Translations under genes and position numbers: made by a program
Origin: a virus
IMG/VR virus record: IMGVR_UViG_3300033153_009093
Location: 1-64,000 of that record
Strand: one strand, 5' to 3'
Length of the DNA stretch: 64,000 nucleotides
Notes under the pieces: model-generated
Databases searched by the model: none
Seen by the model: only the letters and a program-made list of their open reading frames with translations
Told to the model about the DNA's origin: nothing
Part shown: positions 7,080 through 62,085 of the stretch, piece after piece
How the letters are laid out: each line of letters begins with the position of its first letter
How positions within the stretch are numbered: the first letter of the stretch is position 1

Positions 7080-9209
7080 TTAAAATCTCTCAGCTGCATT
7101 TCCTACATTAATAACATTAACGCCTAGCACATTCCAACAACATTCAATAACTTGTTTTCTATCATCAATTGCCGCCAATACGTCATACTTGTATCTAATA
7201 TGATTATCAAACAATTCAGTTTTAATAAAATAATCCTTTCTTACATCTCCTGTTTTTCGCATGAATAAATCTTCATTTCTTATAGTAGGATTTACAAAAG
7301 ATTGTAACCATTCCAAAGTATCTACTCGACAAGAATCATCTCTGCCTGATAAAAATATTATTTTATAATCATTTAAATATTTCAATCCATTTATAATATT
7401 TATTACATGTTCATTTGGAATATCTGTTAAAACTTTAGAATAATCAAATATGACTCTATGTTTGTTTAAAGCTAATGTACCATCAATATCTACAATGTAA
7501 ACTTTTACGTTACCTTCAATAGGTTCATATTTGCGTACATATTGTCGCTGATAATTAATATATTGTTTAAGTAATACCTCATACCCAACTCCGCCTAAAC
7601 GCTGTCTATCGCGCTTTAAAAGTTCTTCAAACTCTACAGGAAAAGCTTTAATGACTATTTCATATCCACGATCTTTTAATTTTTCAATTAATTTATTTCG
7701 ATAATGTTCATTAAGGTTTGTATCAGATAAAACGACATTCCATTTATCTTTTATAGCTTTATCCAATTGTTTATTCCATTCATTAGTTACTGCGCTTTCG
7801 TTTCGTTTTGTAAATTTATAGTTATTCCAATTCTTTTCAACGCCTTTAAATCTTATATTATCTCTATTAATTTCTACCCATTTATAAGGTCTCTTTCTAC
7901 AAAATGCTTCTGCAAATGTAGATTTGCCGGAAGCCGAACAACCAATAGTAATAATTACTTGAGGCTTAATATTCATATTAGTTATTATTAATCCATGTGT
8001 TGTATATTCATTATTTACAGAATCCCCAATATTAACAAATTCATATGTATAAGAATTATTATCGGAATTTAAAACAGAATTTATCCAGTATCTAAATCTA
8101 TTTGATGACATTTCCCATTTATGATCATCGTCCCTCATTTCCTCACTACTTAATAAATAATTTTTATTAAAATCTTTATTTGGAGTTGTAATGAAAATTT
8201 GATGAAAATTTAATTTTAAAACTTTATTTATTAAATCTTCTGCTTCTATTACTGACATATGTTCTATGACTTCTGTAAGCAATATATCAACTTGGCTTTC
8301 GTTTTTATATTGTTCAATGTCAGTATACGTTTTTACATCTAACTGTCTAATTTCTGCTTTTTTATCAATAACATTTATTACATCTGATTTAATATCAATT
8401 GCATGATATGTAAATTTATTTTTTCTTGTTAAATTAAATACGTATAAACCTTCACCGCAACCGATATCTAAAATACTTCTATCATTAGATAAGTATTTTT
8501 CAATAAATCTTAATCGCTGAAAATTAACTGATCCATTGCAAAGACTTATATTATCGCCTTCTAATAGCTCTTTATGTTCATTGAATTTATTTTTGTCTTG
8601 TAAATAATTTCTTGCAAAGATATATCTTAAAAAGTAAGGCAACTCCAATTTATTAATAATATTAATATACTTAATTAAAAATGCATCATTTATTTTTGCA
8701 ATATAAGAACCTTCCTTACCTGATAAAAATAAACAGGATAACATTGCCATATTAATTATTTCATTTAATGTAGTATTAGGATCATAAAATGAAATTCTAT
8801 ACGTATCAATGTCAATTACTTCATAAGTCATATCAATGTTTAAATGGGCTTTTAATTGTTTTAAAACTCTTGAACTTTTAGTTGTTACATATTCTAAAAC
8901 AATTTGCTGACCGGCTTTTGTATCATATTCGGATACTTCTTTTATAGTACTTCTTAAAAACTCTGAAAGTAAACTAAGATAAACTAAAGGAGAACTAAAC
9001 TTACTTTGCGAAAGGTATTCGAAATTTTCTTTTGAAAATGAATTAGCGTCTTCGCCATCTTTAAAAAATAAATTATATTGATTGTTGTCGCTAAACCAAC
9101 CAATCCCTAACCCTTGACGAATAGGCCTTGTTGAGATTCCTGAGTGAGGATTTTTATAAATCGCCCATGAAAAATTCTCACTATTTGAAAAAATTTTTAA
9201 TAATGCCAT
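7080..9209 (-). CDS. Hen1-like RNA 2'-O-methyltransferase fused to T4-type polynucleotide kinase/3'-phosphatase
   Basis: Hen1-like N-terminus; LDIGCGEG, TEVIEH, TTPNKDFN, DDHKWE; P-loop GCSASGKST; HAD motif IVDIDGT; 10 TGG, no TAG. Confidence 0.85.
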   Translation of the reverse strand: MALLKIFSNSENFSWAIYKNPHSGISTRPIRQGLGIGWFSDNNQYNLFFKDGEDANSFSKENFEYLSQSKFSSPLVYLSLLSEFLRSTIKEVSEYDTKAGQQIVLEYVTTKSSRVLKQLKAHLNIDMTYEVIDIDTYRISFYDPNTTLNEIINMAMLSCLFLSGKEGSYIAKINDAFLIKYINIINKLELPYFLRYIFARNYLQDKNKFNEHKELLEGDNISLCNGSVNFQRLRFIEKYLSNDRSILDIGCGEGLYVFNLTRKNKFTYHAIDIKSDVINVIDKKAEIRQLDVKTYTDIEQYKNESQVDILLTEVIEHMSVIEAEDLINKVLKLNFHQIFITTPNKDFNKNYLLSSEEMRDDDHKWEMSSNRFRYWINSVLNSDNNSYTYEFVNIGDSVNNEYTTHGLIITNMNIKPQVIITIGCSASGKSTFAEAFCRKRPYKWVEINRDNIRFKGVEKNWNNYKFTKRNESAVTNEWNKQLDKAIKDKWNVVLSDTNLNEHYRNKLIEKLKDRGYEIVIKAFPVEFEELLKRDRQRLGGVGYEVLLKQYINYQRQYVRKYEPIEGNVKVYIVDIDGTLALNKHRVIFDYSKVLTDIPNEHVINIINGLKYLNDYKIIFLSGRDDSCRVDTLEWLQSFVNPTIRNEDLFMRKTGDVRKDYFIKTELFDNHIRYKYDVLAAIDDRKQVIECCWNVLGVNVINVGNAAERF

Positions 9210-9219
9210 AATATTTATT

Positions 9220-9414
9220 TTAAGTTAATTGATTGTTGACTATATCAATAAGTGAATTAAGATCTGTAGATTTGTAAGTATTAATATATTGTGGGTCACC
9301 TCCATATTCAGGAATTTCAAATAAAATATAAATATTATATATTCTATAAATTTCTACACTATCAATATTTATAGATTGTCCAGATACTAAATCAGATAAT
9401 TGGTTTAATTGCAT
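9220..9414 (-). CDS. Hypothetical protein
   Basis: Start overlaps ligase stop (TAATG). Confidence 0.55.
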   Translation of the reverse strand: MQLNQLSDLVSGQSINIDSVEIYRIYNIYILFEIPEYGGDPQYINTYKSTDLNSLIDIVNNQLT

Positions 9415-10574
9415 TATAGCCTTGGATCGAGTTCTTTATTTTTTTCAATACTAAGTATTGCTTCTATTATACATTCTTTATAATAAGGATTTTCTTTATT
9501 TAGCATATTAATAGGAATATGTAATAATTTTCTACCTATTTCATATTCTTTAATACTTAATCCTACTTTTTTACCGATAGATTTTTTCCGTACCAACCTT
9601 TCTAATTTTTCAGGATTATCGTAATCGGGGCCGTATACTATTCTTAAATATTCTTTATTTCTTACTTTAATATAAGGAGCACAACACAATTTACGATTGG
9701 GGGTATATTTATATACTGCGGGTTTAACGACAATTCCTTCTAAATTTTTATCAACGATATATTTTTTCAAATACTTCTGTAAAATTATATCATCTTTCCA
9801 TACATTTGTATCAGTGACAATATACGGATCTTTTCCTATATTGAAAAAATTTGATAAATTGTCATCCATTGTTATTTTTTCAACATCATTAGTATAAACA
9901 ATTTTAAGAATATTAAAAGGCATATATTTAATGTCGTCACTTTTGGAATATAACTGCAATTGATGATCAAATTTTTCCAACTTTTTTCTTTCTTCTTTAA
10001 TATGATGTAAAGATGAAAGATTTCTTATATCCTTTTTTCTTTTTTCATCAGATTTAAAAGAATTCATCGTTGAAATGATCTGATCATCAAAATTCAATAA
10101 ATCTAATATTGACAATTCTCTATGATATAAATTTCTATATCTTTTAAACTTTTTATTTATAAGATTTTCGCCTAATGCAGTCCATGGCATTAATTCACCG
10201 TCTTCGATAACTAATTTAATATCACTATTCAGCTTATTTTTAAACCAAAAATTATGACGTTCTTTAAATACCTCTGATAAATCAATATGATTTATTTTAT
10301 AACCTTTTCTTGATATTGCATAACATTTATTTATATCTTGAAAGATATAAATTTGTGCTCTGCTTCCCATATATTTCGGCTGTATGATAACTTCATTTAC
10401 GCCCCGCTTTGAATAATGTTCCATAGCATGTGCAAAATCTTCTATATCATTTGTAGAAGGATTTGATTTTGCGGGGGCTACTGTTCCGCTCAAAAAATTA
10501 ACAGTACAGTTAACTAACCGCCTAACTTGCTTTTCTTGTTTAATATTTAATATATAATTAAATTTCCCTTTCAT
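9414..10574 (-). CDS. RNA ligase, bacterial Pnkp ligase-domain (Rnl) type
   Basis: FLSGTVAP, QPKYMGSR (motif I Lys), EGIVVKP, PYIKVRNKEYLRIVYGPDY. Confidence 0.85.
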   Translation of the reverse strand: MKGKFNYILNIKQEKQVRRLVNCTVNFLSGTVAPAKSNPSTNDIEDFAHAMEHYSKRGVNEVIIQPKYMGSRAQIYIFQDINKCYAISRKGYKINHIDLSEVFKERHNFWFKNKLNSDIKLVIEDGELMPWTALGENLINKKFKRYRNLYHRELSILDLLNFDDQIISTMNSFKSDEKRKKDIRNLSSLHHIKEERKKLEKFDHQLQLYSKSDDIKYMPFNILKIVYTNDVEKITMDDNLSNFFNIGKDPYIVTDTNVWKDDIILQKYLKKYIVDKNLEGIVVKPAVYKYTPNRKLCCAPYIKVRNKEYLRIVYGPDYDNPEKLERLVRKKSIGKKVGLSIKEYEIGRKLLHIPINMLNKENPYYKECIIEAILSIEKNKELDPRL

Positions 10575-22946: not shown

Positions 22947-24758
22947 ATGAAAACCTCAAGATATGACAACGCCACGTATTCATTAATAAGAAAGTTATTA
23001 TTATTACAAAAAAATAAACCTAGAAATTTTACACCTATGGATGAAAGATTTCTAAAATTATTAATAAATGGAAAGATTGATTATGAATAGATAAAAAGAG
23101 AAAAAGAAAAATGTAAAACTGATATCAATTATTTTATTAATACTTTTATTTATGTAAAAAATAAATTTCAAAATATAGACGAAATTCCTGAAATTTTAAA
23201 AGATAAAGTAGAAGATGATAAAATTAAATTCGTAATGTATGACATTCAACGAAAACTTGTTGATGCAATTATGAATGATGACAAAGTCATTTCTACTAAA
23301 TCAAGACAGATAGGATTTACGACTACTAGTTTAGCATGCGCATTATAGCTTATTACTTTTAATAATAATAAAACGGTATTGTTGTTTTCTAAAAGTGAAA
23401 AAGACGCAAAAGATACTTTAGCGGAATTAAAATTTATGTATAATCAATTACCATTTTTTTTAAGGCGAGCCATTGATAAAAATAATGAAAAGGAATTGAT
23501 ATTAGGTAATAAATTAAATAGTTCAAAAATCATAGTACAAACTACCGGTAAATCAAGTGGTAGATCTCATGCTGCAACTTAGATTCTATTTGATGAAGCT
23601 GATTATATTCAAGGCATATCTGATATATATAGAGCCTCGGCCCCTGCCATTTCGGCAACTAAAGGAAAATTTATAGTTCTTTCTACGCCTAATTTATATG
23701 GATCGTAGTTTCATAAAATGGTTCAAGGTTCAAAAAATAAAAGGAATGGATTTACTTTAATTGAAGGGCATTAGCATACTATACCTTAGAGAACAAAAGA
23801 ATAGTACGCTGAACAATGTGCAATGTTAAATCATGATAAAAAATCAATAGCGACAGAGCTTGATATGAAATAGATATTGCCCTTTGATACTTATTTTGAT
23901 GATAAAAAATTATTAATAATCAAAGGTATTAAGCCAACAGAAATTATTTGCGGAATAGTTAATCAGTATCATAAACCAAAAAAAGATAATATATATATAA
24001 TTTCTGTTGATTGTCAAGAGGAAGGTTCGCATAATAATGCGATAATTGTATATGATATCAATGAAAAAATAATTGTTGCCGAAGTTGCAACTAAAATGAA
24101 TATATATGAAACGTTATTAGAATTATCAACGTTATATAATAATGCTAGAATAATTATTGAAAGAAATAGAGGATTTTATTTAATAAAAAAATTTGAAGAA
24201 AATGATTTAGAAGAATTACTATTACCTAATATTAAATATTTATCTAAAACAGATAAATTTGAATTCGATATAGACGATAGAGGAAGGCCTAATAAATTAG
24301 GATTCGTAACAACAAAGCATACAAGAAATAAATTATTAATACATCTATCATCTTATATATATAAAACAAGAACCTTGCCAATTCCTATACTAGAAGAAGC
24401 CAGAACTTTTATTATTAAAAGAGGAAGGCCAATAGGAATAGTTAGTGACGACTTATTGATCAGTACAGGAATAGTTATATTAACGGCTTATGTTATTAAT
24501 GATTCTAAAAATAATACTTCTTCAAATAAAAAATTAAAATACTTAATTGATAATTATTAGGGAAAGTCATTAAATTTAAAAAATAAAAGTGTAACTCATA
24601 AAGAAAAAATTAAAAAACAAATAAATAAATTAAAAAGATCTTTAATGAGTTCTTCTAGTACAAATTCATATAATACTTTTATTCAAATAGAAGAATTGAA
24701 AAAAATGAATCATACTAATAATTCTAAAATAGGAAAAATTCAATCAATGTTTTTCTGA
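22947..24758 (+). CDS. terL: Terminase large subunit, 603 aa with TAG read through (9 TAG, 0 TGG)
   Basis: KSRQIGFTT (Walker A region), ILFDEA (Walker B), LSTPN, nuclease SVDCQE and IIIERNR, DDLLIS; all fragments in one frame; TGA stop. Confidence 0.92.
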
Positions 24759-27800: not shown

Positions 27801-29249
27801 ATGAAACATAACATTTTTAATATTATTAAATATCCAGATAAAAAAGAATCTGCGAAAGCATTTGATAATAGCGCCTTATTAAATAATGTAAAAATGTAGG
27901 AAACTCATACTCATTTTTACATTAGCAATTTTCCCGGAACCTTCGGAAATGTGCAAAATAAAAATAATAGAATATATGATTAGAATACATTGACTTATGC
28001 AGCTAATTAGTTCAATGATATAAAAGAAAAAAATCCGTATTTTTGTTATATATTTGATGGTCATAAAGATGATGATAGCTATGAATTTATTGCAGGAAGA
28101 GTATTGCAATTAAAAATAGATCATAGAAATAAATGCATTTTAATGGATTTAAAATTAAATAAAGGGGCAAAATCGTAGCCAGCTATCAAAAATATTATAG
28201 AAGATGGTGACCCGGTAGGGGCTAGTATGAGAATTATAACGCCTAACGTTATAACTTCATCAAAAGAAGAATTAAAAAATATAAATAATAACATTACATT
28301 TTTAGAAGATGATAATAGAAACATTGCTAAATTAATGAGCAATGACAGTGAAATAGAATATATTACAGGGGAGGCGTTTATATAGAGATTCGATATTACT
28401 TGGTTTCCGTCTTTTAATTATTCTTTTGTAAATAAACCTTATAAATTTGACCCGATTTATAATAAAAATGAATCTTTAAATTTTAATAATATTAACGATA
28501 AATTCAAAGATATTAAAACTGCCGCAACTAACTTTTCATCAGATGTAATATGTAGTACAAATTCTTGTGAATTCAGAAAGCAAATAAAAAATTTTGTTGA
28601 TTTAATAAATATAGACAATTCTATAAATAATATTAATAATAAAAATTTATATGAAAGTATGTTAAATTTTTCATATATCAACCTTGATTAGTTTGATTTT
28701 AGTAATATAAAAGATGCGGAATATTTAAAAGATGCTTTAGAAGAAAATAATTATACTGATATTAATATTTATAAAGAAGTAATATCAAATATTATAGAAA
28801 ATAACATTATAAATTATATTATAGAAAAAAGTGTTTTTGATGTCGATATAATTAATAAACTACTAATTAATACAATAAACGAAATAGTTGATGAAGATAA
28901 TATATTTTATCAATTAATAACTTTAAATTATTTACATTTTACAATATTATCCACTATATTACTTTCAACAAAAAATAATGATAAAGTTGATAATATAAAT
29001 AATTTAGTTGATGTTATAGCAACTAATATAACAAAGAATGATACTATTGATAGTTTTGTTTTTAAATTATATAATGATTTAAAAAAAGAAATTAATTTAT
29101 ATGATTATATAAATTATATATTTATGTATCTATATAAATATATTAATAATTATGGTGATAAAATATCACCATTATTAATTATAAACGAAGCTGTAAAATT
29201 ATTTACAATTAATAAATCATTGACTATAACAAAATATATTAATAAATAA
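27801..29249 (+). CDS. Prohead protease (T4 gp21-like) with C-terminal extension, 482 aa (6 TAG, 1 TGG)
   Basis: Missing from ORF track. GTFGNVQNKNNRIYD*, DGH, GDPVGASMR (Ser motif), FI*RFDITWFPSF. Confidence 0.8.
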
Positions 29250-29298
29250 AAAATCTAATTAATATAACAAATACATGTTATTAAAAGGGTATAATTAT

Positions 29299-30975
29299 AT
29301 GAGTAAATTACTTACTGTATTAATTAAAAAATTAAATAGTGTTAAAGAATCTTCACAAGATGTCACTCTTGATTTTTCCGAAAATAAAGAGGCGGTGTAC
29401 GAGGATTTGTTAATACCTTTAATGAATTTAACTAAATCATCTGATTTAACGCAATTGCATGATAGTTTAAATGTTATCATTAATGATCCTCAAGATTCTG
29501 AAAAATTTACAGAAATCGGAGATTTATTGGTCAACTATCTTATGGAAGATAATAAAGACGATGATAATGGAGATTTATATGAAGAATTTGATAATCTCAT
29601 GTTAAATTGCATGGCAATATTTAATAGTTTAAAAAAAGCTATTGTCGAGAAAAATATTACAACTATGAATGAAGAATTAACAACTTATATCAATTCTAAA
29701 TTTAAAGTTGACCATGATGATGATGATACAATAAATGATCTTGAAAATGATGATAGTTCAATTGATTCAAAAGAAAATAAAAATAAATTGAAAACCAATG
29801 ACGATGTCGCTGAATCTATAAAAATTATTTCGCCAAAAGATGAAACTGATGATGAAGCTTAGGGGGAAATAAATAAAATAGAATTAAAAAATACTCTTAT
29901 GGATCAATTAGAAGGATCAAAAGGAGAAAAAGAAAAAAATACCATAAAAGAAGTAATAGATGAAACTTTTGCATTAGTGACATCTTATGAAAAAACTGGC
30001 GATTAGAAATAGCCTCATCATGTTATTAAAGATGAAAAATTAATTCTTAATGTCAACGGTTTAAAAACAGCGGCATTATTTTTATTAAAACATAACACTT
30101 CCAGAAATTTATCATCCGATGAACGAATTGAAATTGCAACCCATCTCAGTCGGCATTATGATGAATTGGAATTAGAAAAACCTGAACGATTAATTAAAAT
30201 AGCGGATGATTCTGAAAGTATTATAACTGTTAAAGTACAAGAAGATGAATTAAAAGAATATGCTGAAAATTTTAATACTAATGTCGAAAATGTTTCAATT
30301 TATATTGGATTATTCGAAGCATTAATTACTGATTTAGTAAATAGCGGAATTATAGATATTAAAGACAAGGCGGAAGATTTTGATGAATCTTTAATATCTG
30401 TTCAGCTTTCAAAAGAACAAGTTGAAGAATTTTTAAATTATTTTGACATTATGTCTGATGATATTTTAAATATTTTATCAAATAATTTAAGTTCTATGTC
30501 TTATAAAAAGACTGATATTGATTTAAAAAATAAATTGTTAAAATCGGAAAGTATTATAACTGAATTGCAACAAACAATTATTGAATTGACCGAACAGAAT
30601 AAAAAGAGTGAAACTGATTTAAATAAAGCGACAAATTCCAATTATGATAAAAATTTAGTTGATAATAAATTTGAAGTCATAATTAATTTTGTCAAGTCTT
30701 CAGATATTAAAGATGAAACATTAATCCAGTTTATAAATAATATTATTGAAGCCGAATCTAAAAAGGATATAGGATATCTCACTAAACTTGGTAAATCATT
30801 TATGAAATCAAAGATATCTGATAGTACTCAGTTTATAAAAAAGTCTAAAGTAATAAATAGATTTTCTAATAATGAATTAGACGAATTATTAGATTTTGTA
30901 GGAGATGGAAAAACTGAATCTGCTGATTCTATTATTGACAATGATAGAATCAATAGATTGGCAGAATATTTATAA
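29299..30975 (+). CDS. Putative scaffold/prohead core protein, 558 aa (3 TAG)
   Basis: Joins ORFs 29275 and 30166 via TAGs at 29860, 30004, 30010; acidic coiled-coil; GD*K*PHH...HLSRHY module; lies between protease and capsid genes. Confidence 0.7.
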
Positions 30976-30988
30976 TAAAAACTTAATT

Positions 30989-31002
30989 AATTAATATAAT
31001 AA
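30989..31002 (+). promoter_or_regulatory. Candidate late promoter AATTAATATAATAA
   Basis: Exact copy 25 nt before the capsid ATG. Confidence 0.55.
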
Positions 31003-31027
31003 CAAGAAATATAAAGGTAACATATAT

Positions 31028-32155
31028 ATGTCTAAATTAATCGATATTTCTAAAATTCCACTTGATAAAAAAGAAAGTTTGGAAATTGCAGGATTTACTT
31101 CTAAGGCAAGAGAAAGGTACAAATTGGCACCGGCTAAATCAGATAATTTAAGTATTATGCTAGGGAATATATATAAATATTTTAAAGTATTTAATGAATC
31201 TAATGCGGCAACAGTATCATCTGACATTGAACCATTTAGAGATTTAGCCATCCTAGCGACTACTAAATTTTATACACAAAACATATTAGATCAAATTTGT
31301 TCAGTGCAAACAAGTGATTCTCCTTATGGATTGATTACATATGTTGATTTTCAATATGCAGATGACCATGCACCTGATACAATTGTTGCAGGTGATAGCA
31401 TAGCCAGAAGAAGTAGAACTTATGGCGATCATCCGGGCGAACAAACATTATCCAGAAGAATTAAAACGAAGATTGAACAAAAACCTATTACTGCCGGTGT
31501 TCGGTCTATTGAAGCATCTTATTCTCTTGAATCATTTTTAGCATTAAGCTCTGTCCAAGGGCAAGCAGGAGCAAAGCAGTTTCTTGATAGAACTTACTTA
31601 GATGTAATTGCTAATAAGTTAAGAGATGAAGCAGAATTTGCCGTTGTTGATGCTATGTATTCAAGCGTTTTACCTGCTCATACATTTACATTTGCGCACG
31701 ATACGACCGTTTGCGAAGAAGAAGAATGTCAAGCAAGACGATTCTTGGATAAAATTGAAGAGTCTGCTCAAAGTGTGTATGATAATAGAAAAGTATGGCC
31801 TAATGTTGTAATTGTCGGCTCTGATGCTCTTAAATTAATCAGAAGAGGAGATACTAAGATAATTAATAATTATAAAGCAGGCACTGGAGTACCTTCTTCT
31901 GTCGCCCGAAATTATTTAGGCGTTTTAGATGATAGATATGGACTATTATATGATCCAGAATTAACAGGGGCTATTTTAACTTAGAAAGATAATAGTACAG
32001 ATTATGGAGGGTCAGTAGTTTACACTTCCGTTGTTCCAGTTGCTATTACCCCGGCTATTACTGAAAGAGATTTGGCGACTTATAGAGTAATTTATACAGT
32101 TGATTCAGTAGATGTAATTCATCCTGAAATTATGGCGAGAATTGATATTGTTTAA
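31028..32155 (+). CDS. Major capsid protein, T4 gp23-like, 375 aa (1 TAG, 1 TGG)
   Basis: ICSVQTSDSPYGLI, ITAGVRSIEASYSLE, YLGVLDDRY; ILT*KDN matches gp23 FTVGYKG; TAA at 32153. Confidence 0.85.
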
Positions 32156-47178: not shown

Positions 47179-47220
47179 TAATTAGAAAGGGATTATTATA
47201 TAATAATCCCTTTCTAATTA
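47179..47220. repeat. Perfect 42-bp palindrome, convergent terminator
   Basis: taattagaaagggattattat|ataataatccctttctaatta. Confidence 0.92.
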
Positions 47221-49668
47221 TACTAAATTATGTAAATAATTTAACTTAGTAGTTTTATTTTTCATAATAAATCTTTTTATTTTATAATATTCATTTATCA
47301 TATTAATATCAAAATTTAAAATATTTGTAGAAAATGAAAATTTTGTCTCATATTCATCTTTATATAAAATAATATCTTTAGGATAATTATTTAAATAATC
47401 TGTTTTTTGTGTTAATATAACAATAACTTCTTTTTCTTTCGTCATGTTATTTTCTAATACCTTTATAGAATTAAACCATTCTATATTAATATAATCATAA
47501 GATATAACAGGTTCATATTTATCATCTAATAATTTCTAATTATTTTCCGCGATAATATTATCAGAATCAACCGAAGATATTGTAATAAACTTATCATCAA
47601 TCTTTATAGTTTCTCCGATATTGCTATAATAATTTACTGAATCATTATAATTTAAATAATAATTATTACTATTTAAATCAATCATAGATTTATTATTTTT
47701 ATTATATATACATGAATCTTCATTAAGCTCTATAAATAAAAATGTTTTATCATCTGATAAATGAATATTTTTATAAGGAACTTGAACATCTTCTATTAAG
47801 TTTTCATTATATTTACTCCGAAGAGAATCAACTATAATTTTATAATTATAAATTATTTTATAATTATCCTCTGCAATTTTATCAACTCCTATTCTTGTTA
47901 AATGTACTGAATTATTTTTGGTTGATTTTATGGGATAATATTTCAATCCTGAAATCGAAGTAACGTAATTCAAATTTCCTTGATAAAATATTTTATCATT
48001 TTTTAAATCAATAAATAATGTAAATATTTTATCATTTTTTAATAATTCTATATACTATAATTTATCGCCATAATATACAGCATCATTAACGGTTGTATCT
48101 GTAATATTTATAGGTATATTGATTTCGTTTAATATAGAATAATTTGTACCATCATTGCAGTATAGTTCAACAAAAAGAGTAGTATTATATAATGAATCTG
48201 TTGCATCAGTATTAATAAATTGAACCAAACTATATAAATTATCATTTATTTTATTATACTATCCATGTTCTGAAAATACATGGTCATATACAACTATATC
48301 AGTATATCCAATATCATTATAATTTATTTCCTTTGCTATTGAAATTTCTTTATCTTTAAATAGTTTATTATGATCTAATAAATCATAATATTTTTTATAT
48401 ACTTGTTTTACGTTCAATATATCAAAAGTATCATTATCAACATTTAAATATTTATCAAACATTATACAATTCTAATCACTATTATCTTGTATAATCTCTG
48501 CTATTTTCATATTTATCAAAGGGATATCAGTATCATTATCAAAATATTCCATTTCGATTTCGGTTCCAATAGTACAGTTATTATTATGATACTATAATTC
48601 ATAATATACTTTTGATATATCAAAAGATGCTAATAAATATAAATTAAGATTAACCTATTCAATATTTCCTATAATTACATTTTTAAATAATGTTGTAGTA
48701 TCATAATATATATTACATCTTAAATTTGCTGTAGTGTCTGAAGTAGTAAACAATAAATCTTTTAATACTTTATAATTCTATAATGTATGTTTATTTTTAT
48801 ATGATAATGTAAAATTCTAATTATTTAATTCTATATTATCATATTCATCGAATAATCCTATATTGGCAGTATTATCAATGTCATTTTCGTTAACAGTTAA
48901 TTCTATATTATTATCATTTTCGTTATATACTATCGGATATAACGTATTATTTGATATAGGAACATTGTCAGGCACTTTAAAAATTAAAGAATTTATTTCA
49001 TATTGATCATCAATTATTTCATTATAATTTGCTTTGTAATTAAAATCATTTTCTTGACCATTGTAAATAATAGAAAACTTTTTACCATGCGTAAATAAAT
49101 TTTTATACTTGTTTATATTTTCTACAACAGGAGGCGTACCGCCATCATTAAATGTTAAATAAAATATATTACTTGTGAACTAATTAGATCCATAATATTG
49201 TCTAATTGTTATAAAATATTCTCCCGGTGAAGAAAAATATTGAACGTTATAATTGTTATATGTATTAGTTCCGTATATTGTATCTGATGCGATATATGAA
49301 CCCGGTTGCCCTCCTGATGAATAATGCTAATAAAATTTCAAATTATAATTCGATGAACTTTGTGAAGGTTTAGTTATACTAACATATCCAGGACTGGATA
49401 TTTCGAATTTATACGTTCTATATGTATATGATGTAGAAGGATTATACGGAGGCGTACAAGCTATGGATGGGTCATTTAGATCAATAGTGTATGGTTGATT
49501 GTTAAATATTTGAGAGTAGCAAGGAATAGAATTGTCTAATTGTTTAATAACTTTTATATCGTTTGACATATTATCCAAATATTGTTTAGTTGGACAATTA
49601 ATTTTAAAATAATTTTTATATTCTGAAGTAGTATCACTAATATTTTTTATATAAAATAGACTATTCAT
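47218..49668 (-). CDS. Large putative virion/tail protein, 816 aa (10 TAG, 1 TGG)
   Basis: Joins four ORF-track fragments in one frame; no internal TAA or TGA. Confidence 0.8.
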
Positions 49669-50939
49669 TAATCATTCCTTATTTCTATTGATTTCGTTAC
49701 CTATTTATATTGTAATGGATAAATAGAATTTACGAATTTTAAATTGACATTACAATATTTATTTATTGCATACTTTTCATTGTCTGTAAAAAATATATCT
49801 TTAGTATCAAATAATAAAAGATGTGACTGAATATTTAATATTTTTATATTTATTTTATTTATTAAAGCAGAGGTGTCATATAAGTTTCCTAAATACTAAT
49901 AACTATCAACTGGAATATTATTATTAATAAATAATAATTCTAATTGTGATAAATATAATTTTTCAACATTGCCATATAAACCAACATTCAAATTTACATA
50001 GGGATTAATATCATTTTCTTCTATTTGAGAATTTAAAAAGCTTACATGAATTTTACAAGTTTGATCTTTTGTTAAATAAAAATACTCTTCTGTAGAAAAC
50101 ATATCTCCATTATCTGAACCTATATCGTAACTAGGCAAATCTTTATCTGGATATACAACAACTCTGGAAGAATTTCCCGCCTATGCATTTTCTTCGGTCA
50201 ATTCATCATTTTCATAATCTATATATTCTCCTAATTTTAACTTATACTATCCAGTGAAATTAGGAGTAAATTCTAAAGCTCTATATTTATATGATGATCC
50301 AAAAACTGGGCATACACTCCCAGCTTTATTAAAAGAAAAATCTAATATTAAAACATTTTCTCCTACTAAAGGTTTTTCTAATTGCGGCAACTGTAAAGTT
50401 TGTTCAATAAAAGAACTCTAGGTCTATTCAAATATATTAGATAATTTATTTATATCATTATCAAAAACTATATCAGGTTTTAAATATGATAATGTTATTA
50501 AATTCATAGCATTTTCGGCTATTAAAACGGAATCTACAAATTTTTTATTGATATTTAAAAAATTTTCCGTTAATAATTTATCTTTCTAAGTTGAATTATT
50601 AACCATATTTTTAATATAAGAAAGATCAATTATTCTATTTTCTCTTATAAATGTCGTATTATAATTATTTTTAATATCTAATTCAACTATAATATCATTT
50701 AAATTGTCAAAATTTCCAATAATACTATTATTTATTTTAACATTTGTAGAATCAGAATATAAATAATTAGGATAACAATTGTTAAATAAATAAGATGTAT
50801 CGGAATAGGATATATCTTTTTTATTTTTTATTTTATCAATAAAAATTAAATTAGTGGTAAATTTATCACTAATTTTTAAAGATTCGTATTCTTTTATTCT
50901 ATATTTTTTTATTGAATAATCTAATGTTATATCTTCCAT
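49668..50939 (-). CDS. Putative virion protein, 423 aa (7 TAG)
   Basis: Joins ORFs 50586 and 49896; FTG*YKLKL; TAA overlaps next ATG (TAATG). Confidence 0.78.
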
Positions 50940-51011: not shown

Positions 51012-54000
51012 ATGATACCACATTTATCAAAACTAACCAATATAAATGATCTTAATAATTTTGAACAATTATTTTCTTTCAAAAAATCAACGCAATTATT
51101 TATTATACCAAAAGTATATGATGAAAATAATCCTTATAAAAATGAATATAATGACGAATATTAGTTACTAATTTAGTGCGAATTGATAACTAGTGATACT
51201 GATTATTATAATTTTTTAAATAACTTTTTAACTGACACTGCAATATCTAATAAAGATTCTAACAATTTAGCATTATTTTCTATAGAAAATGATACTCTTA
51301 ATTTTGTAGATATGCATGTTTTAGAAACTGACAATAGAGCTAACTTTTCTATAAATTTAAAAACTGCACAAGATTTAATTATTGATGATATTAATGTTAT
51401 TGGTATATATTATACTCAACCAACATTTGTAACAATAAACGATGATATTATAAATAAAAATTATGGTGATATATTTACAGTATCAGTAAAACAATTAAGT
51501 TACGATGATTATAATAATAAATATACTAATCATTATATGTTTCCAGATTCTTAGGATGATTCTGAAGCGTCTAATCCTACAAATTTTGTATTGCCCCGTG
51601 ATATCAGTGATGATTATTATAAAGGTTCATATAATACAAGAACCACTTTACCAGATGAAAAATCCTAGTTAAGTTATAGCTCTGATAATTTTAATACTAA
51701 AGATAGAATAAAACAATATAGAACAGAGTACTTTGACCATGTAATACCTGATATAAATAATGATCAAAATATTGCAATAGCCTATAAAACAATTCCTATA
51801 GCACCTTATATGAATATAGATATTTATATAAACGGTATTTTGAATGAGTATAAATTAAATAATATAACATCTATTCAGTAGATAGATAATAAAATTTTTC
51901 AAATCGTTAAAGATGGTATACTATATAAATGTAATATGCATTGGGAATCTGGTACATTTTACAATTTAATCGAATTAGAAAACTTAAATATTTATTTAAA
52001 TGGCTTATTAAAATATCACAATAATATAATAAAATACGGCAGTAATATAATAAGCGAAAAATAGTCTTTTGGATATGGCAATAGTACTTATGATGATTGT
52101 AACATTTATATAAATGATCAAGAATTTTCTGAAAGTAATTCGGTATAGGGTACTGGATCTTATTATATAACACATAGTAATATTTATAAATTTGGAATGG
52201 ATATGATACAGCCTGTATTATACGAATTTAAAAATTTTATTATATTTCCTCGAAAACGATCAATATTACCTATAAATATAAAAGATTCTTATTAGAAAAA
52301 AACAGTATATAATGAAAATGATTCAGTTTATGTTGCTAATAGAGAAGAGGATTCTATTATTAAAATAAACAATTTTAATAATATTAAACTATTAGAAAAT
52401 GATGCCAAACTAATATCTGAATCAGGAACTAATGCTTTTTATAAAATGAAATCCAATTTAGCATTTGAACAATTATCCGATGATATTTCTTTAATAACAA
52501 TATATAATAATATCGGAGATGTAAACGGTGCGTTTAAAAATGCAAATGAAGATTCAACTAACAATATATTTTTAAAAATTGATGATTATGATTATGATTT
52601 AACAACAGAAAATATAACCTTAGAGTTAAATATAGATTATTCTGAAATAAAACAATTTTTACAAAATGATAAATTTATTAAATTATTAAATAATAATAAT
52701 AGTTATTATTTAAAATAGAATAATTATCTTTTTAATTCGATAACGGAATTAAAAAATAATTTTATGGATATTCTAAATAATAATTTTAATTTGGATGAGA
52801 TAAATTTGTCAACATAGACAACAGAAAATAGTAATTATATAGATAATATCATAGGTATTCAAGATACTATAGATTCTGATATATTTGCTATTAGCAATAA
52901 TACTGAACAACTTAAATTAGGTTATAATTTTATAGAGTTAAATTCATCTTTAAATTCTATAACGAATTTAACTAATCATAAATCAGAATTTAAAATTGAT
53001 CAATTTATAACTTCAGATGGTACAATATATCAAGAAAATGAGATAAATTATAAACTATATAATATTAATACGGATATATCATTTAAATTAATAATTACTG
53101 CTGAAAAAGAATTAGCGGAAAATTATATCAATGATAAGATTATTAATATTGAATATACTATTGAAGATATTAATCAATGTGAGACATCATATATAGTAAA
53201 TAAAAATTTAGAAGATTTATCAAATATTACACATGATACGACTACTATAAATTTTATAAATGATAATACATCTATTACATTATCAAATATTGATAGCACT
53301 TCAATAACATTTGAAGAAAATATAAATTTAAATGAAGAAATCATTCTTAATAAAGATGAAACTTTAAATATCGATATAACTCTTTCTAATTTTAATTTAG
53401 ATAAAGATATTAATCATTATGATATATTTTCAAGTTATAAATATAATGATTTTATTGATATTCATATTAAAGATGATTATTATAATCATAATATTTACCA
53501 TTTGGATTTAATAGGAAAAACTTTTAACACTTATAAAGTTAATTTATCTAATGAATATAAATTTTATACATTTGGAAATTTACCAAAAAAATGCAAAACA
53601 TAGTTATCAACTTAGTATGATTATGATGAAAATAATACTATAAATGAATTTTATGGTAATTATAATAATGCAATTCTATATAATTTAATGGAACAAAATT
53701 CAGCGAAGTATTTTATAGAAAGATATATAGCAAATGAAGCGTTCACTGAACCCGATAGTAATAATACTCCTTGTGATGCATATTATATAAAACAAAATGA
53801 TACCGATTTAGGCACCCTTCCTACATCGCAATCAATTGATGTATAGCCGGTAGATAAAGAGGCTCATACATTGTTTATTAATGCCGCTGTAAATGATTTA
53901 ATAGATGGTGGTAATACTATGTATACAGATTATGAATAGCGATACTATTTAGCTAAATATGGCGTTAATTATGGTGCTATATTAAATGGAGTATCGTCCA

Positions 54001-54773
54001 CTGAATAGATTGTAGGTAATACTATAAAGCCTATAACATAGTAGGTTGATAACGATGCTCAGTTATTTGATAAAGATAACTGCAATGGTTATAATGTTTA
54101 TAATTATTATGATAATACGACCTCTAACAATTTATGTTTCACTTTTAATAAATATTCCGACTCTACTAATCAAATAGAATCATCTTACATTGATTCCACT
54201 AGTATAGATACAATAGAATATGAAAATAGAATAAATGAATACTTCAGTAATGGTTATCCTATTAATAAAAATTTTGATTACGGCAGTCCATTATTAAATG
54301 ATTATAAAAATAAAACTGGAGTAATATATTTTTGCGATTTTTCTTCTCGTTCAATACATCAATCATATGGTGGTACTTTATAGAATCATATTATTGATTT
54401 TGATTACGAACTTCATTCAAATGAAATAGAATTTTTGTCAAATAATTTAACAGATATATTAACTAAAATATATAATGAAAAAAGAAAAATGGGACAAATT
54501 GTAATAGATAATGATTTCAAATATAAATATATTGAATGCGGGTCGTATATTTATGATATCCCTCGATCCTCTATGAATATTAAATTAGAAAGAAAACATT
54601 CAACTATAACAGTGTATATAAATGATATTATTGTAGATGAAATACTTACTAATGATGATAAATCATACATTTCTAATATTATAAATTAGGGCAATATATA
54701 GGCCGGAAATAAGACTATTAATATGTATAAAACTATAAACATAGTAACAAAAAAATCAGGATTATGGTGTTAA
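51012..54773 (+). CDS. Giant putative virion/tail protein, 1253 aa (20 TAG, 2 TGG)
   Basis: ATG 51012 to TAA 54771 with no TAA/TGA; next ATG at 54775. Confidence 0.82.
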
Positions 54774-54774
54774 T

Positions 54775-55896
54775 ATGATAAAAAGGTCATTTTATGATTT
54801 TAAAAATCAATTTACAAATGAATCTATAGATAATGTAAAAGTGCCTTATAATGTTCTTTTAAAAAGTTTTAATACAGATGTAACCACATATGATGATATA
54901 TTAAATTATTTTGATATAGATATTTCTTCTGATGGTACTAATATATCTTGTGACATTACACAAAAGGAAGATACTAGTTATATATACCCTGAACCAATTA
55001 TTTATGATTTTTCAATACCTAATGAAATTGATTATATATATGATTAGTATCCGGCTTCAGATGATCCTCAATCTCATTAGATAGGGGTAAAATTACCTTC
55101 AGATAATACCTCTGTGTTAATAAATAAACCTTTTAAAGATACTACAATTACATTATCAGAGACAAGAAAGATGCACCCTACGCCATCTATCGAAATGTAG
55201 TATTCTTCATATAATGACCATTTAATATTACCTAAAGAAGAATTGGTATAGGATGAAAATTTTACAGAATTCGCAACTGATATTTATAAATTCGCAAATG
55301 ATACAACAAAAACTGAATATGCTCATAAATATGAATTATATTTATTTAATCCATCTACATTACTTTCATTAAATAAAAATTTTAAGTTTGGGTTTCATTT
55401 TGATTCTAGTTTATTAGGTGTAAAAAATACTAATGATTTTCAATGGAATCCTAATAAAAAATACTAGCCAAATAATACTAATGTCACAAATGATATAATT
55501 GGCAGTTATTATGATTATGATTCTAATTATAAACTAAATGGATAGTTATTAATAAATAGTGATATTACATCTTATATTGGTTCTTATAACTTAAACATAG
55601 ATACTACTGTAATTATAGATAGTGAAAATTATAAAATAAATAGAGCACATGTACCACCTATGAGATATTTAAGTATTGGGGATTTTGATACTGATGAACC
55701 TGAAAACTATTATCAACCAATTATTGCTTTTAATGATAAAAATAATTATAGACATGTTAAAATTGAACACGAAAATCATAGTCAATTTACCGAAACGACT
55801 GGTATAAATGCTATTTTAAATTCATTAAAGAATGAAACTCATAGTGAATTTTTAGTTGAATTTGATGGATATAATGAAGTAATAGAATTAAATTAA
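54775..55896 (+). CDS. Putative virion protein, 373 aa (6 TAG, 1 TGG)
   Basis: Continuous frame to TAA. Confidence 0.78.
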
Positions 55897-55924
55897 TTTT
55901 TAAATAAAGAAGGGTTATATATTC

Positions 55925-58711
55925 ATGTCAAATATAAACTATGATAAAGATATTTTAATTTATCCTATAACAAATAATTTATCAGATATAACTAATACTG
56001 ATATTACAACATCACATGCTATAAACGTTAATATTCTTAGTTTAGTTAATAGTACTGGAATAGCTATTTATAAAGATAATACTTAGGTATTTAAAGATTT
56101 CAATAATGAAATTGAAAACAAATAGATATTTAATGATAGCACAAATACTGACATGACAGTATATTCCTATAATATTTATAATATATTTATTGATGATACA
56201 GAAAATATTAAAGCATATTTATATAACAATAAACGAAAAAAGATCAGTGATATATTTGAAAAAAATATTAATATAGATTATAAAATAACAATAGATATTA
56301 CTGGAATAGATTTATCTGATCCGAAAAATTATGAATTGGATAGTACAATTGTATTGGATACAACTTCATAGATAGATAATACAGTAATAATAAAGCATGT
56401 ATCAGGTATGTATAATAGAAAATATCAAATGGATTCATATACTAATATATATGAGTTTACAACTTCTGATTCGACCAATTTAGTTTATAATTTGTATCAA
56501 GATTCAGATAATAGATTATTTGATTACAATAACAATCTTACTTTATATGTAACAGATTCGACAGGTAATCAAGTTTCAAATAAACTAGAAAAAAATTATT
56601 TAATAAAACATATAAACTGCGAAACTCCTTTAATGTCACCTATTGTGTCGGAATATATTAATTATAATACTTAGAATGCGAGTCCAACTAATTCGAATAC
56701 ATATGAAGGTGATTGGCATAGTTGTTGTGTATATACAAAATATATGAACTTAACAATTCAACCTTATGGTACTTTTCAAAAAAATCTTAAATATTTCGAT
56801 ATTTATAATAATTATAACTCAACCGGAGCAATAAATTTAACATATAATGTCCCTTTATTAATAACTTCATATTTATCGCAAGGTGATAATTGGGATGAAA
56901 ATGTAAGCGGTGAATTAGATACAACCGATACAATTATAGAACATGATATTCATCCTTCTAATATTTATAATAATCATAATCTCATAAACTATAGCGAAAA
57001 TTCTATATTTTTATAGTTTAAATAGAATGATAATATTACGTCATATAATTATGATGATAATATGCATTCTTTAAGAATTAGAAATAATAGAGAAGGAAAT
57101 TTAGATTTGGTATATTTTCCTAATGACTATAATAATACTCCTACTTATTTTGATGATCATACTGACACTGGCGCATATGGTGAGGAAAATATATCTGGGC
57201 CAGAGTAGTATACTACGTCCAATTTTATAGAATAGAGGAAATATAATTTACAGTATAATAACTGGGATAACATAAATGAAGAAGTTATAATTGATTCATC
57301 TTATGAATAGAAATATTCTGAGCAACAATATTATTAGTAGGAAAGTAGAATACCAATAATGTTACGAATTGAAACTAATCACAAGGTAAGATTTAAATTA
57401 GAAATGAATGGAGCGGAAGATTTTGATGATAGAATTAATAATTTAATAGATATTGTAATAAATCCTAATGAACCTTTCGAATTAAGACAATCAGAAGATT
57501 TTTATATTAATCCATATACTTATTATTTTGTAACTTTTTAGTTTGAATTATTAGATACCACTACTATAAGTTTAGAAACCGCTCAAGATATAGAATTTAA
57601 TGTGTAGTTAACTCCTATTAGAGATGATAGATTATATATAATAAAAGATGATATATCTTTTCAACACGGAGATGAAATAGAATAGTTTTCGTTACAAGGT
57701 GAAGTTCACCATGATCCAGAATATATATATAATATATCTAATATAAATAAAATGACAATGGATGATACTATAAAATGTAATGATCCTTATATAAAATTTG
57801 ATAAAGGTACTAATGATTTAAGTATTTTGATGACAGAATTTTCTTCAAATGATACAACTTCTAATGTATCATTAAATTTTAGAACTTATAACATTGATGC
57901 TACATCTATTCCTGATTTTACTAATGTAAACGATTTAAATATTGGTGATATTGTACATGTATATGGATATAATTTAAACGAAACTTATATAGTTGAAAGT
58001 TATATTGTCCCTGATAATACTAATATAACTCAAAGTGAAGTTTATAAAATTTCTTTTAAAACTGCAACAGGTGTATGTTCTACTCCGGTAGTTGTTAGAG
58101 ATGATGAATATGGAGAATAGACTATAACTTGCATTGGGGATTGTAGGCCGTCATATACGTATGTAACGAGCAATTATGCTGATGGTAATACAATGCACCA
58201 TATTACATACCAAGACGGTTTAAATGTCGCTCAAGGCGAACCAGTCGAAGTATTGACAGTTCATCCTAATACTAATAGAGGATGTAATGTATATATGGAT
58301 AACACAGAAGCAATAGTGTGCATGGCACCATATGCAATAAGATATGACACAGAACAAACCGGTGTATTTTTTGCATTTTCTTGTATAGGTGATGATTTAT
58401 CATATGCTTCATCTGAAGTTATAGAAAGTGAAAATTACCCTGATCAAAGTATGTGCCCTGTAGGTAATTTGTATTATTATTATGCAGGTAGAACATCGTA
58501 GAAATGGTATGAGCATAATTATGCGAGAGGAATAGGATCTTATAACGCAACAAGATATTATCGAAAAAATGAAGGCTCTTAGATAAATTCAGGGACAAGC
58601 TCTTATTCATATTTATCGGTAAGTTTAAATGATACAATTGAAGTTATGCAACAAGATACATATTCAAATTATGACCATTCATGGTCAATTAAAAAGAAAC
58701 GATAGGCGTAA
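55925..58711 (+). CDS. Large putative virion/tail protein, 928 aa (18 TAG, 5 TGG)
   Basis: Joins six fragments; YKDNT*VF, RTS*KWY, NEGS*INSG; TAA followed by ATG at 58714. Confidence 0.82.
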
Positions 58712-58713
58712 TA

Positions 58714-61700: not shown

Positions 61701-62085
61701 ATTAGCGTTATTTGAATATGGTCATAATTTTGAGATGGAAAATGGTTATTGTCATACATTACCTACAATAAAAACTGATGGTAAAAAAGATTTATTTCAA
61801 TTAAAATATGAAGAAGAATTTAATGATTATTAGGCATTTTATTAGTAGTACCCTTTAATAAAGCATGATATTGTTTCAAGGCAAAATGATTATAGTAATT
61901 CATATATGTACAATTTAATAGAATAGTATAATTATGAAATTGGAAATTCTTCTATAGGTTCCTATGATGATACATATAATGAATTTGTGATAACAGCATA
62001 GTCTACTTAGGGTTATATAGATTAGTTTTTTTCTAAAATAAACGTTGTTTATGATAACGATAAACGAATTATTACAGATTTTTAA
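58714..62085 (+). CDS. Giant putative virion/tail protein, 1123 aa (19 TAG, 2 TGG)
   Basis: Continuous frame to TAA; NDY*AFY**YPL. Confidence 0.82.

Follow-up and report, generated by a model that had tools for sequence, protein, structure and literature searches.

Two genetic codes in an A+T-rich T4-like phage: TAG as a probable tryptophan codon in the terminase and other late genes

The 64,000 nucleotides analysed here (the window) are the first 64 kb of the 180,374-bp IMG/VR virus record IMGVR_UViG_3300033153_009093, a genome of 24% G+C with inverted terminal repeats that is rated complete. At positions 22947..24758 of the window, on the forward strand, lies the gene of a large terminase subunit (TerL) of the T4 gp17 type, whose 603 codons include nine in-frame TAGs and no TGG and end in a TGA stop. 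Very probably, this phage runs two genetic codes. Its replication, nucleotide and RNA-repair genes would follow the standard code, and in its virion and packaging genes TAG would mean tryptophan, served by a tRNA with the anticodon CUA, tRNA(CUA), and a phage-encoded tryptophanyl-tRNA synthetase (TrpRS). TAG is a sense codon, and it is tryptophan-like in composition, in the columns of homologs and in the substitutions between orthologs. The tRNA(CUA) and the TrpRS are present in the genome and are conserved in a relative. We infer that charging of the tRNA(CUA) is the work of the phage TrpRS and not of a host synthetase, that the host keeps to the standard code, and that expression is timed as described below.

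When TAG is read through, the window holds 61 open reading frames (ORFs) of at least 100 amino acids, and the coding density is 91.5% genome-wide. Fifty-six read-through ORFs of the window contain 139 TAG and 97 TGG codons, and the two codons almost never occur in the same gene. The same division runs through the whole genome, in which 68 genes contain 308 TAG and 46 TGG codons and 149 genes contain no TAG and 246 TGG codons. The 308 TAGs are distributed evenly along the ORFs (35, 32, 33, 29, 36, 32, 27, 20, 30 and 34 in successive deciles), six tandem TAG-TAG pairs are found, and the ORFs stop at TAA (176) or TGA (41), neither of which occurs internally. Because of this even spread, the tandem pairs and the fact that all ORFs end in TAA or TGA, TAG is to be regarded as a sense codon of the late genes and not as a sign of decay. 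The TAG-free genes that could be named in the window are those of PolB, a UvrD helicase, an NAD-dependent ligase, a Hen1-PNKP fusion, a PNKP ligase and a CCA-adding-type enzyme. These serve replication or RNA or nucleotide metabolism. The TAG genes include the terminase, head genes and large virion-type ORFs.

It could be supposed that no tRNA decodes the TAGs: the genes might be decayed or split, or their mRNA might be edited from UAG to UIG and then translated like UGG, in the manner of the amber/W site of hepatitis delta virus. Editing would also yield tryptophan at TAG and would explain why TAG replaces TGG. We give these explanations next to no credence. Decay is ruled out by the number and evenness of the sites, the lack of internal TAA and TGA, the essential nature of the genes, the completeness of the genome and the 89 sites shared with the relative. 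The presence and conservation of a dedicated tRNA(CUA) argue against both, and we know of no precedent for near-complete editing at hundreds of unrelated contexts.

The composition of the two gene classes points to tryptophan. The TAG genes have 1.12% TAG and 0.17% TGG (1.29% in sum), and the TAG-free genes have 0.86% TGG. Tryptophan, counted as TGG, is the most depleted residue of the TAG genes at 0.19 times its level in the other class; the next lowest is cysteine, at 0.48 times. Tyrosine (7.03 versus 6.58%) and glutamine (2.08 versus 2.32%) are unchanged between TAG genes and TAG-free genes. Tyr codons are used equally in both classes and TGG is down five-fold, CAA and CAG are likewise used equally, and with TAG as tyrosine the late proteins would hold only 0.17% tryptophan. 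The ratio TAG/(TAG+TGG) is 0.87 in the late genes, equal to A/(A+G) at twofold synonymous sites (0.83-0.92), as expected if TAG and TGG are synonymous under A+T mutation pressure; in a 276-kb relative that is less A+T-rich it is 0.69.

The terminase was the starting point of this study. An earlier note, made from the letters of the window alone, had counted nine TAGs and no TGG in this gene, and the codon count gives exactly the coordinates that it listed. The ORF also has no internal TAA or TGA, 12 CAA and 2 CAG codons. At the 0.86% TGG of the TAG-free genes about five TGG would be expected in 603 codons, and the Poisson chance of finding none is about 0.5%. By its sequence, the ORF encodes a large terminase of the T4 type. 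The T4 gp17 chains in the PDB match it at E 1e-12, and phmmer found 4138 homologs at E<=0.001. By tblastn, 650 phage records match, the best being the TerL of a Flavobacterium phage at 25.7% identity. The Walker A residues K118, R120, Q121, G123, T125 and T126 and the Walker B residues D216 and E217 are intact, in columns that are 76-99% conserved in 136 homologs. As regards the presumed C-terminal RNase H-like nuclease domain, the phmmer alignments to gp17 and the other homologs extend through residue 420-540. With tryptophan at TAG the protein scores 23.1 bits against Terminase_6N (PF03237) and passes the gathering cut-off of 22; glutamine (19.7) and tyrosine (21.9) fall below it, and phenylalanine (22.2) is marginal.

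For the comparison of columns, TerL was searched against 1.84 billion representative proteins with its TAGs masked as X to avoid bias. The best 150 matches were aligned, a profile was built from 136 distant homologs, and log-emissions were summed over the TAG sites, eight of the nine columns being scored in the profile. Four TAGs fall on tryptophan columns, all numbered on the forward strand of the window. Residue 134 (23346..23348) follows Walker A in a column that is W in 109, H in 20 and Y in five of 140 homologs, with an emission of 0.78 for W and 0.0002 for Q. Residue 254 (23706..23708), in the motif STPNLYGS-X-FHK, has W 50, F 23, L 19, Q 11 and H 9, and W is the top emission at 0.32. 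Residues 276 (23772..23774; W139, Y3 of 142 homologs) and 286 (23802..23804; W133, F6, Q3) lie in near-invariant tryptophan columns with W emissions of 0.97 and 0.95, and T4 gp17 itself has W at the former. Two further TAGs fall on hydrophobic or aromatic columns. With residue 212 (23580..23582) the hydrophobic part of the Walker B strand begins (X-I-L-F-D-E; L91, I11, F11, M9, W3), and the Q emission there is 0.0009; residue 309 (23871..23873) is aromatic in the homologs (F129, W4, Q3). The remaining three say little: residue 48 (23088..23090) lies in a variable, gappy column (E33, D9, Q6, K5, W4) and is weakly informative, residue 281 (23787..23789) is E, D or G in poorly aligned distant homologs and uninformative, with a profile mildly against W, and residue 538 (24558..24560) lies in a C-terminal tail that is mostly gaps. 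The claim of the earlier note that the TAGs occupy the tryptophan positions of the family holds, four of the nine columns being tryptophan columns in the unsmoothed profile; at residues 212 and 309 the family is hydrophobic or F. Its placing of one TAG in the hydrophobic Walker B strand was correct. The consensus strings that it gave for the T4-like family agree with the wider family, in which 134, 254, 276 and 286 are W columns, and not with T4 gp17 itself, which in the PDB has H, I, H, W, E and F at the positions of residues 134, 212, 254, 276, 281 and 286.

The close relatives, two of which (P0005 and P0008) were examined at the codon level, complete this picture. At residue 276, W is found in the 276-kb relative and in the relatives P0005 and P0008, and TGG was read directly in the latter two, which also have TGG at residue 254. 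Residue 286 is W in the 276-kb relative and TAG, shown as Q in the database, in P0005 and P0008. P0008 has TAG at residue 134 as well, and the matching motifs of the 276-kb relative contain in-frame TAGs at residues 134 and 281. Residue 212 is TAG also in P0005. At columns that are not W-like in the distant homologs, some close relatives have tryptophan: residue 48 is W in P0011 and TAG in P0005, residue 309 is W in P0004 and P0008 (TGG in P0008) and TAG in P0005, and residue 538 is W in P0010 (NTYWGKT) and P0014 (KEYWSNI). The fragments P0006 and P0012 end one residue before 538, so they probably have TAG at the same site, called as a stop.

When the emissions are summed with the unweighted profile (no entropy weighting), W is best, followed by F (-11.7 nats), Y (-15.4), L (-16.2) and Q (-32.1). 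As a control for this profile, Q, Y, F, L, K and E were each recovered from their own codons in TerL. The Q emission is at most 0.0002 at five of the eight scored columns. In this phage TAG occupies three of five W-conserved TerL columns and none of the seven Y-conserved or four Q-conserved ones; in three phages (this one and two relatives) the counts are 6 of 15, 0 of 21 and 0 of 11. The homolog alignment that the earlier note had proposed for scoring W against Q at each TAG was run, and it favours W; the structure models that the note also proposed would not tell the residues apart. Its statement that glutamine fits these columns poorly is borne out, Q being the worst of the compared residues with either weighting (-32.1 nats unweighted, -8.7 with default smoothing). 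Its view of the terminase as the strongest single-gene test of the residue was too optimistic, as W, L and F tie under default smoothing. From these alignments, the terminase alone excludes glutamine and favours tryptophan only moderately. The case for tryptophan is strong only because the genome-wide evidence is added to that of the terminase.

According to the earlier note, glutamine in the closest homologs would speak against tryptophan, and at first sight this is what the databases contain. The nearest full-length relatives, P0005, P0007, P0008 and P0009, show Q at the tryptophan columns. However, the database proteins of P0005 and P0008 are reproduced only with TAG as Q (code 15), and at the codon level these glutamines are TAG. 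The conserved tryptophan positions accordingly read Q in the database translations of the relatives' TerL genes at L008:8610-10673 and L009:10001-11797. Other TerL relatives stand in the databases as fragments whose last residue directly precedes a TAG site. Once TAG is a sense codon, the coding density of related contigs rises from 0.44-0.82 to 0.94-0.96. The recoding is thus common to these relatives; in public databases their TAGs are wrongly translated under code 15, or their genes are broken up under code 11. A search of IMG/VR with the single TerL protein returned no close relative; an alignment query then found a complete 276-kb genome, IMGVR_UViG_3300021166_000052, whose TerL is 59% identical.

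This genome allowed the identity of TAG to be examined in 107 reciprocal-best protein pairs with a median identity of 46%. TAG of the present phage pairs with TAG at 89 sites, with TGG at 45, with Tyr at 35, with Phe at 13 and with Gln at one; TAG of the relative pairs with TAG at 89, with Tyr at 48, with TGG at 18 and with Gln at one. Among the 292 non-TAG partners of both directions there are 63 TGG, 83 Tyr and two Gln. Scoring with empirical substitution rows taken from these same alignments puts Trp first, with Tyr at -50.7 and Gln at -404.6 nats. A second gene, which encodes a DUF5662 protein at 123991..124443 of the genome with five TAG and no TGG, was compared with Pfam PF18907, a curated family that has nothing to do with the terminase. 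Tryptophan at TAG gives 114.1 bits, as against 101.6 for F, 98.9 for Y, 96.3 for L, 93.1 for X and 91.6 for Q. A TnpB/Cas12f-like gene at 122520-123851 of the genome (+; PF07282, 23.7 bits) has five in-frame TAGs; in three database homologs two of these columns have W in at least two sequences and a third has W in one. This transposon-type nuclease gene has adopted the late-gene code of the phage. In the other domains compared (DUF4379/DUF723, SLT and Terminase_6N), W, Y, F and Q differ by only 1-6 bits and do not discriminate, and DUF5662 alone is decisive. When 29 further ORFs with TAG were compared with PHROGs and Pfam, the codon being masked as X or translated as W, almost no family matches came up, so a broad Pfam-based inference of the codon was not possible. 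For two late proteins, tblastn gave no match among 50,697 phage records.

Glutamine deserves consideration as the meaning of TAG, as in NCBI code 15, which is used by crAss-like and Lak phages and is applied in databases to the relatives. No reassignment of TAG other than code 15 has been described for phages (10.1101/2021.08.26.457843; PMC9523058), and of 29 phage tRNA(CUA) assayed in an E. coli extract, 28 inserted Gln (10.1101/2025.10.30.685624). Here, two glutamines among 292 partners, the deficit of 404.6 nats in the orthologs, the very low TerL emissions, a DUF5662 score 22.5 bits below that of W, the unchanged use of CAA and CAG, and the absence of TAG from every Q-conserved column leave it hardly any probability, and on these comparisons the reading seems effectively refuted.

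The presumed partner of the tRNA is a class I synthetase of 316 amino acids, encoded at 134073..135023 of the genome on the reverse strand by a gene with no TAG and no TGG (PF00579, 84.8 bits). Its profile and its modelled fold identify it as a TrpRS of the [4Fe-4S] Thermotoga type. The enzyme belongs to an isolated family of 13 sequences from large phage-like contigs, the next database match scoring 37 bits. The family profile matches the Thermotoga maritima TrpRS 2g36 over its full length at E 1e-23 with the four Fe-S cysteines aligned. When the PDB is ranked with this profile, the top 16 entries are TrpRS; the profile scores 87 bits against TrpRS and 29.9 bits against the best tyrosyl-tRNA synthetase (TyrRS). 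The AlphaFold model has a pLDDT of 86.4, and its Foldseek matches, as far as listed (ranks 1-50), are all TrpRS. The HIGH, KMSKS and DQ (GxDQ) motifs are invariant across the family, with H15, G17 and H18, K200, S202, K203 and S204, and D163 and Q164 identical in the 13 members and aligned to 2g36. A YP.LQ..D motif (Y138, P139, L141, Q142, D145) is also invariant, and a conserved Asp of the family is presumably the residue that contacts indole in bacterial TrpRS. The motif C-x(20-24)-C-x(4-6)-C-x2-C, a predicted metal site, occurs in all 13 members and aligns with the cysteines of 2g36. In the 276-kb relative, too, this synthetase is encoded (50% identity). In relatives the TrpRS gene lies in a module with genes for rIIB, dUTPase/dCD, dNMP kinase, ribonucleotide reductase (RNR) and ClpP, which we take as early. 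In one relative the RNR large subunit of L047:3572-7117 carries a LAGLIDADG intein (1181 amino acids versus about 818 elsewhere), and a homolog of Hc1 (PF07432, histone H1-like) adjoins the RNR gene in three relatives (L044:19118-19312, L045:15911-16102 and L047:7162-7359).

The only tRNA of the 180,374-bp genome has the anticodon CUA. It is encoded among TAG-free genes, next to that of a DnaB-like helicase of the same class, at 108714..108787 (-), and is 74 nucleotides long (ARAGORN; Rfam tRNA, 59.4 bits). ARAGORN labels any CUA tRNA as pyrrolysine, an assignment that was set aside as the column evidence points to Trp. A gene for an HNH/NUMOD4 homing endonuclease (108840-109379, -; six TGG, no TAG) directly adjoins the tRNA gene. 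The 276-kb relative has 22 tRNAs, including tRNA(CUA), tRNA-Gln(UUG) and tRNA-Tyr(GUA), and no tRNA-Trp(CCA). The tRNA(CUA) bodies of the two phages are very different, one of class I and one of class II, though their synthetases are 50% identical. In these two genomes the tRNAs have in common only C1-G72, U73 and the AGACUCUAAAUCU arm, and this set likely comprises the identity elements of a dedicated enzyme. The tRNA(CUA) of the present phage is 68% identical to the tRNA-Gln of the relative, a weak point for glutamine as it ties with tRNA-His. The identity elements of E. coli glutaminyl-tRNA synthetase (GlnRS) are U1-A72 and G73, the opposite of what the phage tRNA has, and C1-G72 and U73 may also act as anti-determinants for GlnRS. 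A pattern scan of metagenomes found five CUA tRNAs on contigs of 32-50% G+C.

It is also conceivable, though unlikely, that TAG means tryptophan and the host TrpRS charges the tRNA(CUA), the phage TrpRS serving to boost the supply of Trp-tRNA or to charge the tRNA-Trp of the host. Most recoded phages have been proposed to use host synthetases (Borges et al., 10.1101/2021.08.26.457843). The class I and class II bodies of the two tRNAs would also be odd for one conserved dedicated enzyme. However, both tRNAs share exactly C1-G72, U73 and the anticodon arm, as would be expected of such an enzyme. Bacterial TrpRS recognizes the anticodon CCA together with G73, whereas the phage tRNA has CUA and U73. 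In addition, TrpRS and tRNA(CUA) occur together in both complete genomes, neither of which has a tRNA-Trp(CCA) to be served. Returning to the phage enzyme as the charging one, we consider it somewhat more probable than its opposite that a natural orthogonal pair has arisen in a clade of T4-like phages rich in A+T: a [4Fe-4S]-type TrpRS would recognize a tRNA with CUA, C1-G72 and U73, and the pair would install UAG as Trp in cells that otherwise use the standard code.

Several points weigh against tryptophan. The identity of TAG as Trp is drawn wholly from comparison. With the default smoothing of HMMER, W, L and F tie in TerL taken alone (0, -0.3 and -0.5 nats; Q -8.7), and three of its nine TAG columns (48, 281 and 538) are not W-like in distant homologs. 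The weak domain DUF4379 scores higher with Q (38.5 bits) and Y (37.6) than with W (32.3), and the SLT domain, at 27.3-28.3 bits for all residue variants, shows no preference. The best NCBIfam match of the synthetase is tyrS (40 bits) ahead of trpS (31.8), both below the cut-offs, so that it must be regarded as a divergent member of the TrpRS family. A domain search of the genome found no RF1 or RF2 (release factor) domain and no anti-RF1 function. Bacterial tRNA-Trp has G73, and the phage tRNA(CUA), with C1-G72 and U73, is unlike it. The tRNA(CUA) of the relative (112953-113043, +), which has the same C1-G72 and U73, is 91 nucleotides long with a long variable arm. The anticodon arm of the phage tRNA, CAGACUCUAAAUCUG, is the same as what we take to be that of E. 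coli supF tRNA-Tyr. Finally, the partners of TAG in the orthologs are Tyr more often than TGG (83 versus 63), which keeps tyrosine alive.

Given the features of the tRNA and the frequent pairing of TAG with Tyr, tyrosine stays the one serious rival as the meaning of the codon. The tRNA(CUA) would then be a supF-like derivative of tRNA-Tyr, and TAG would have piled up at former Trp sites only because one A+T-favoured mutation leads there from TGG. Besides the anticodon arm, C1-G72 is a mark of tRNA-Tyr in archaea and eukaryotes, and a long variable arm such as that of the relative's tRNA is found in bacterial tRNA-Tyr. The 83 TAG-Tyr codon pairs and the tyrS match of the synthetase point the same way, and a TyrRS:tRNA(CUA) pair has been shown to place Tyr at UAG in vitro (preprint 10.1101/2025.10.30.685624). 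We nevertheless judge tyrosine to be very unlikely. It loses to W by 50.7 nats in the orthologs, 15.4 nats in TerL and 15.2 bits in DUF5662. The share of Tyr among the partners of TAG matches that of the genuine TGG row (W 144, Y 54, F 20), and the excess of Tyr over TGG fits the W row once the TAG-TAG pairs are counted as identity. TAG falls on none of the 21 Y-conserved TerL cells in three phages and on six of the 15 W-conserved ones. The synthetase is a TrpRS by profile (87 versus 30 bits for TyrRS) and by the listed Foldseek matches. Moreover, the position two before its first conserved Gly, presumably that of the Tyr which binds the tyrosine hydroxyl in TyrRS, is F in two family members, and the tRNA(CUA) is no nearer to the relative's tRNA-Tyr than to other tRNAs. 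Tryptophan thus remains the preferred meaning of TAG.

With TAG as tryptophan, infection might proceed as follows. The standard-code genes, that of TrpRS among them, would be translated first, and the tRNA(CUA) gene lies in their midst. The phage TrpRS would charge tRNA(CUA) with Trp. As the pair accumulates, UAG would come to be read as Trp and the late genes would become translatable. Once TAG and TGG were synonymous, A+T mutation pressure would drive the change from TGG to TAG. The position of the tRNA among TAG-free genes and the lack of TAG in the TrpRS gene imply that both can be made before recoding. Temporal gating of this kind has been proposed for phages with code 15 (TAG as Gln) and code 4 (TGA as Trp) (Borges et al., 10.1101/2021.08.26.457843).

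Other genes of the window illustrate the two classes. Among those with TAG, three head-module ORFs at 27801..32155 (+) have 10 TAG and 2 TGG in frame, and the region includes the major head protein at 31028..32155 (+; phrog_138, E 1.6e-12). Seven large virion-type ORFs of 373-1253 amino acids, at 47218..50939 (-) and 51012..64000 (+), contain 90 TAG versus 11 TGG and are open only when TAG is read through. The standard-code class is exemplified by the RNA-repair genes at 7080..10574 (-), which have no TAG and 13 TGG. They encode a Hen1-PNKP fusion of 709 amino acids, with a Hen1 N-terminal domain (Hen1_N, 180 bits), a methyltransferase, a kinase and a PNKP phosphatase (HAD_PNKP, 127 bits), and next to it a PNKP ligase of 386 amino acids (PNKP_ligase, 122 bits). 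The two genes resemble a Pnkp/Hen1-type system; such systems repair tRNAs cut by ribotoxins, which suggests that the phage faces attack on tRNA. Beside the PNKP ligase, alone in a TAG-free block, lies an ORF of 182 amino acids with five TAG and no TGG (10678-11226, -) and no PHROG match. Directly downstream of the terminase and on the opposite strand (25022-26269, -) is a gene of the tRNA nucleotidyltransferase/poly(A) polymerase family, with a PolyA_pol head (78.7 bits) and an RNA-binding domain, a function of tRNA maturation in a genome with a single tRNA. A full-length transfer-messenger RNA (tmRNA) is encoded at 171981-172339 of the genome (-; Rfam RF00023, 100.7 bits), with the tag peptide ADDYAIAMAA according to ARAGORN; it may be relevant to the rescue of ribosomes at UAG codons left unread, or to the identity of the host. 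The TrpRS:tRNA(CUA) pair may also free late translation from the tRNA-Trp and TrpRS of the host, for instance as an escape from a defence that targets tRNA, which would fit the Pnkp/Hen1 genes, the CCA-adding enzyme and the tmRNA of the same genome.

To our knowledge, the only stop-codon recodings reported in phages so far turn TAG into Gln, or TGA into Trp or Gly. A full-text literature search for UAG or TAG read as Trp returned only the plastid code of Balanophora, and a search for phage amber reassignment together with TrpRS returned nothing relevant. If the present reading is true, amber codons read as tryptophan would be reported here for the first time from a virus or from any free-living system. 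In phages with a code unlike that of the host, only TAG to Gln and TGA to Trp have been observed, a limit attributed to the GlnRS and TrpRS of the host, which can be hijacked (Borges et al., 10.1101/2021.08.26.457843). A TAG-to-Trp phage code with its own synthetase would break this rule. Annotation also matters: a 2026 survey of jumbo phages assumes TAG to be Q, and under code 15 or code 11 the tryptophans of late proteins are written as glutamine or as a break, to the detriment of homology searches and predicted structures. With its unusual identity elements, a natural TrpRS:tRNA(CUA) pair would be a candidate orthogonal amber system for expanding the genetic code, complementing the UGA-reading phage pairs that were tested recently. 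In addition, the agreement of the late-gene TAG share with the A share of synonymous sites suggests that mutation pressure captures a codon as soon as it is allowed.

Compared with known proteins, the two key gene products are divergent members of familiar folds. The phage TerL keeps the motifs of the fold family of T4 gp17 (Terminase_6N), but is only about 25-29% identical to any TerL of cultured phages, and every Trp in it would be written TAG. For the phage TrpRS, the [4Fe-4S] enzyme of T. maritima (2g36) is the best match in sequence and fold (Foldseek E 3e-14, TM 0.70), and HIGH, KMSKS and all four cluster cysteines align. However, the phage enzyme is only about 19% identical to it, and its presumed tRNA has the anticodon CUA.

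The closest parallels in gene organization are phages that read TAG as Gln (crAss-like, Lak and other gut phages; Borges et al.; Peters et al., PMC9523058). There, TAG is confined to late, structural and lysis genes, and the early genes keep the standard code. As in the present phage, TAG lies in the late genes, a tRNA(CUA) is encoded and late translation is presumed to be gated in time. In contrast, the amino acid here would be Trp, TAG replaces TGG and not CAA or CAG, a TrpRS is encoded and no RF2 was found. Phages that read TGA as Trp (the Jade phages with TrpRS, tRNA(UCA) and RF1, Borges et al.; the AP1 and HF2 pairs) likewise have a phage TrpRS and a suppressor tRNA and keep the genes of this machinery in the standard code. 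Phage TrpRS:tRNA(UCA) pairs for UGA are known and tested, and the AP1 and HF2 tRNAs have G73 or A73 (10.1101/2025.10.30.685624), whereas the tRNA(CUA) of the present phage has C1-G72 and U73. In the present phage the codon is UAG, and the TrpRS gene and the tRNA gene are 25 kb apart, with no operon and no release factor gene. As the codon is UAG and not UGA, the anticodon has U35 where CCA has C35 and the synthetase has to tolerate this, in our reading a harder change than the one at the wobble position in UCA. In E. coli, the change of C35 to U35 redirects tRNA-Trp to GlnRS. The plastid code of Balanophoraceae (NCBI table 32) has the same meaning of TAG, in an extremely A+T-rich genome that favours the change from TGG to TAG. 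It belongs to a plant organelle with one code throughout its genome, whereas the phage would have two codes and a dedicated synthetase. Recoding in phages, together with the machinery that changes the code, was already known; what is new here is the pairing of codon and amino acid and the need for a synthetase that accepts U35.

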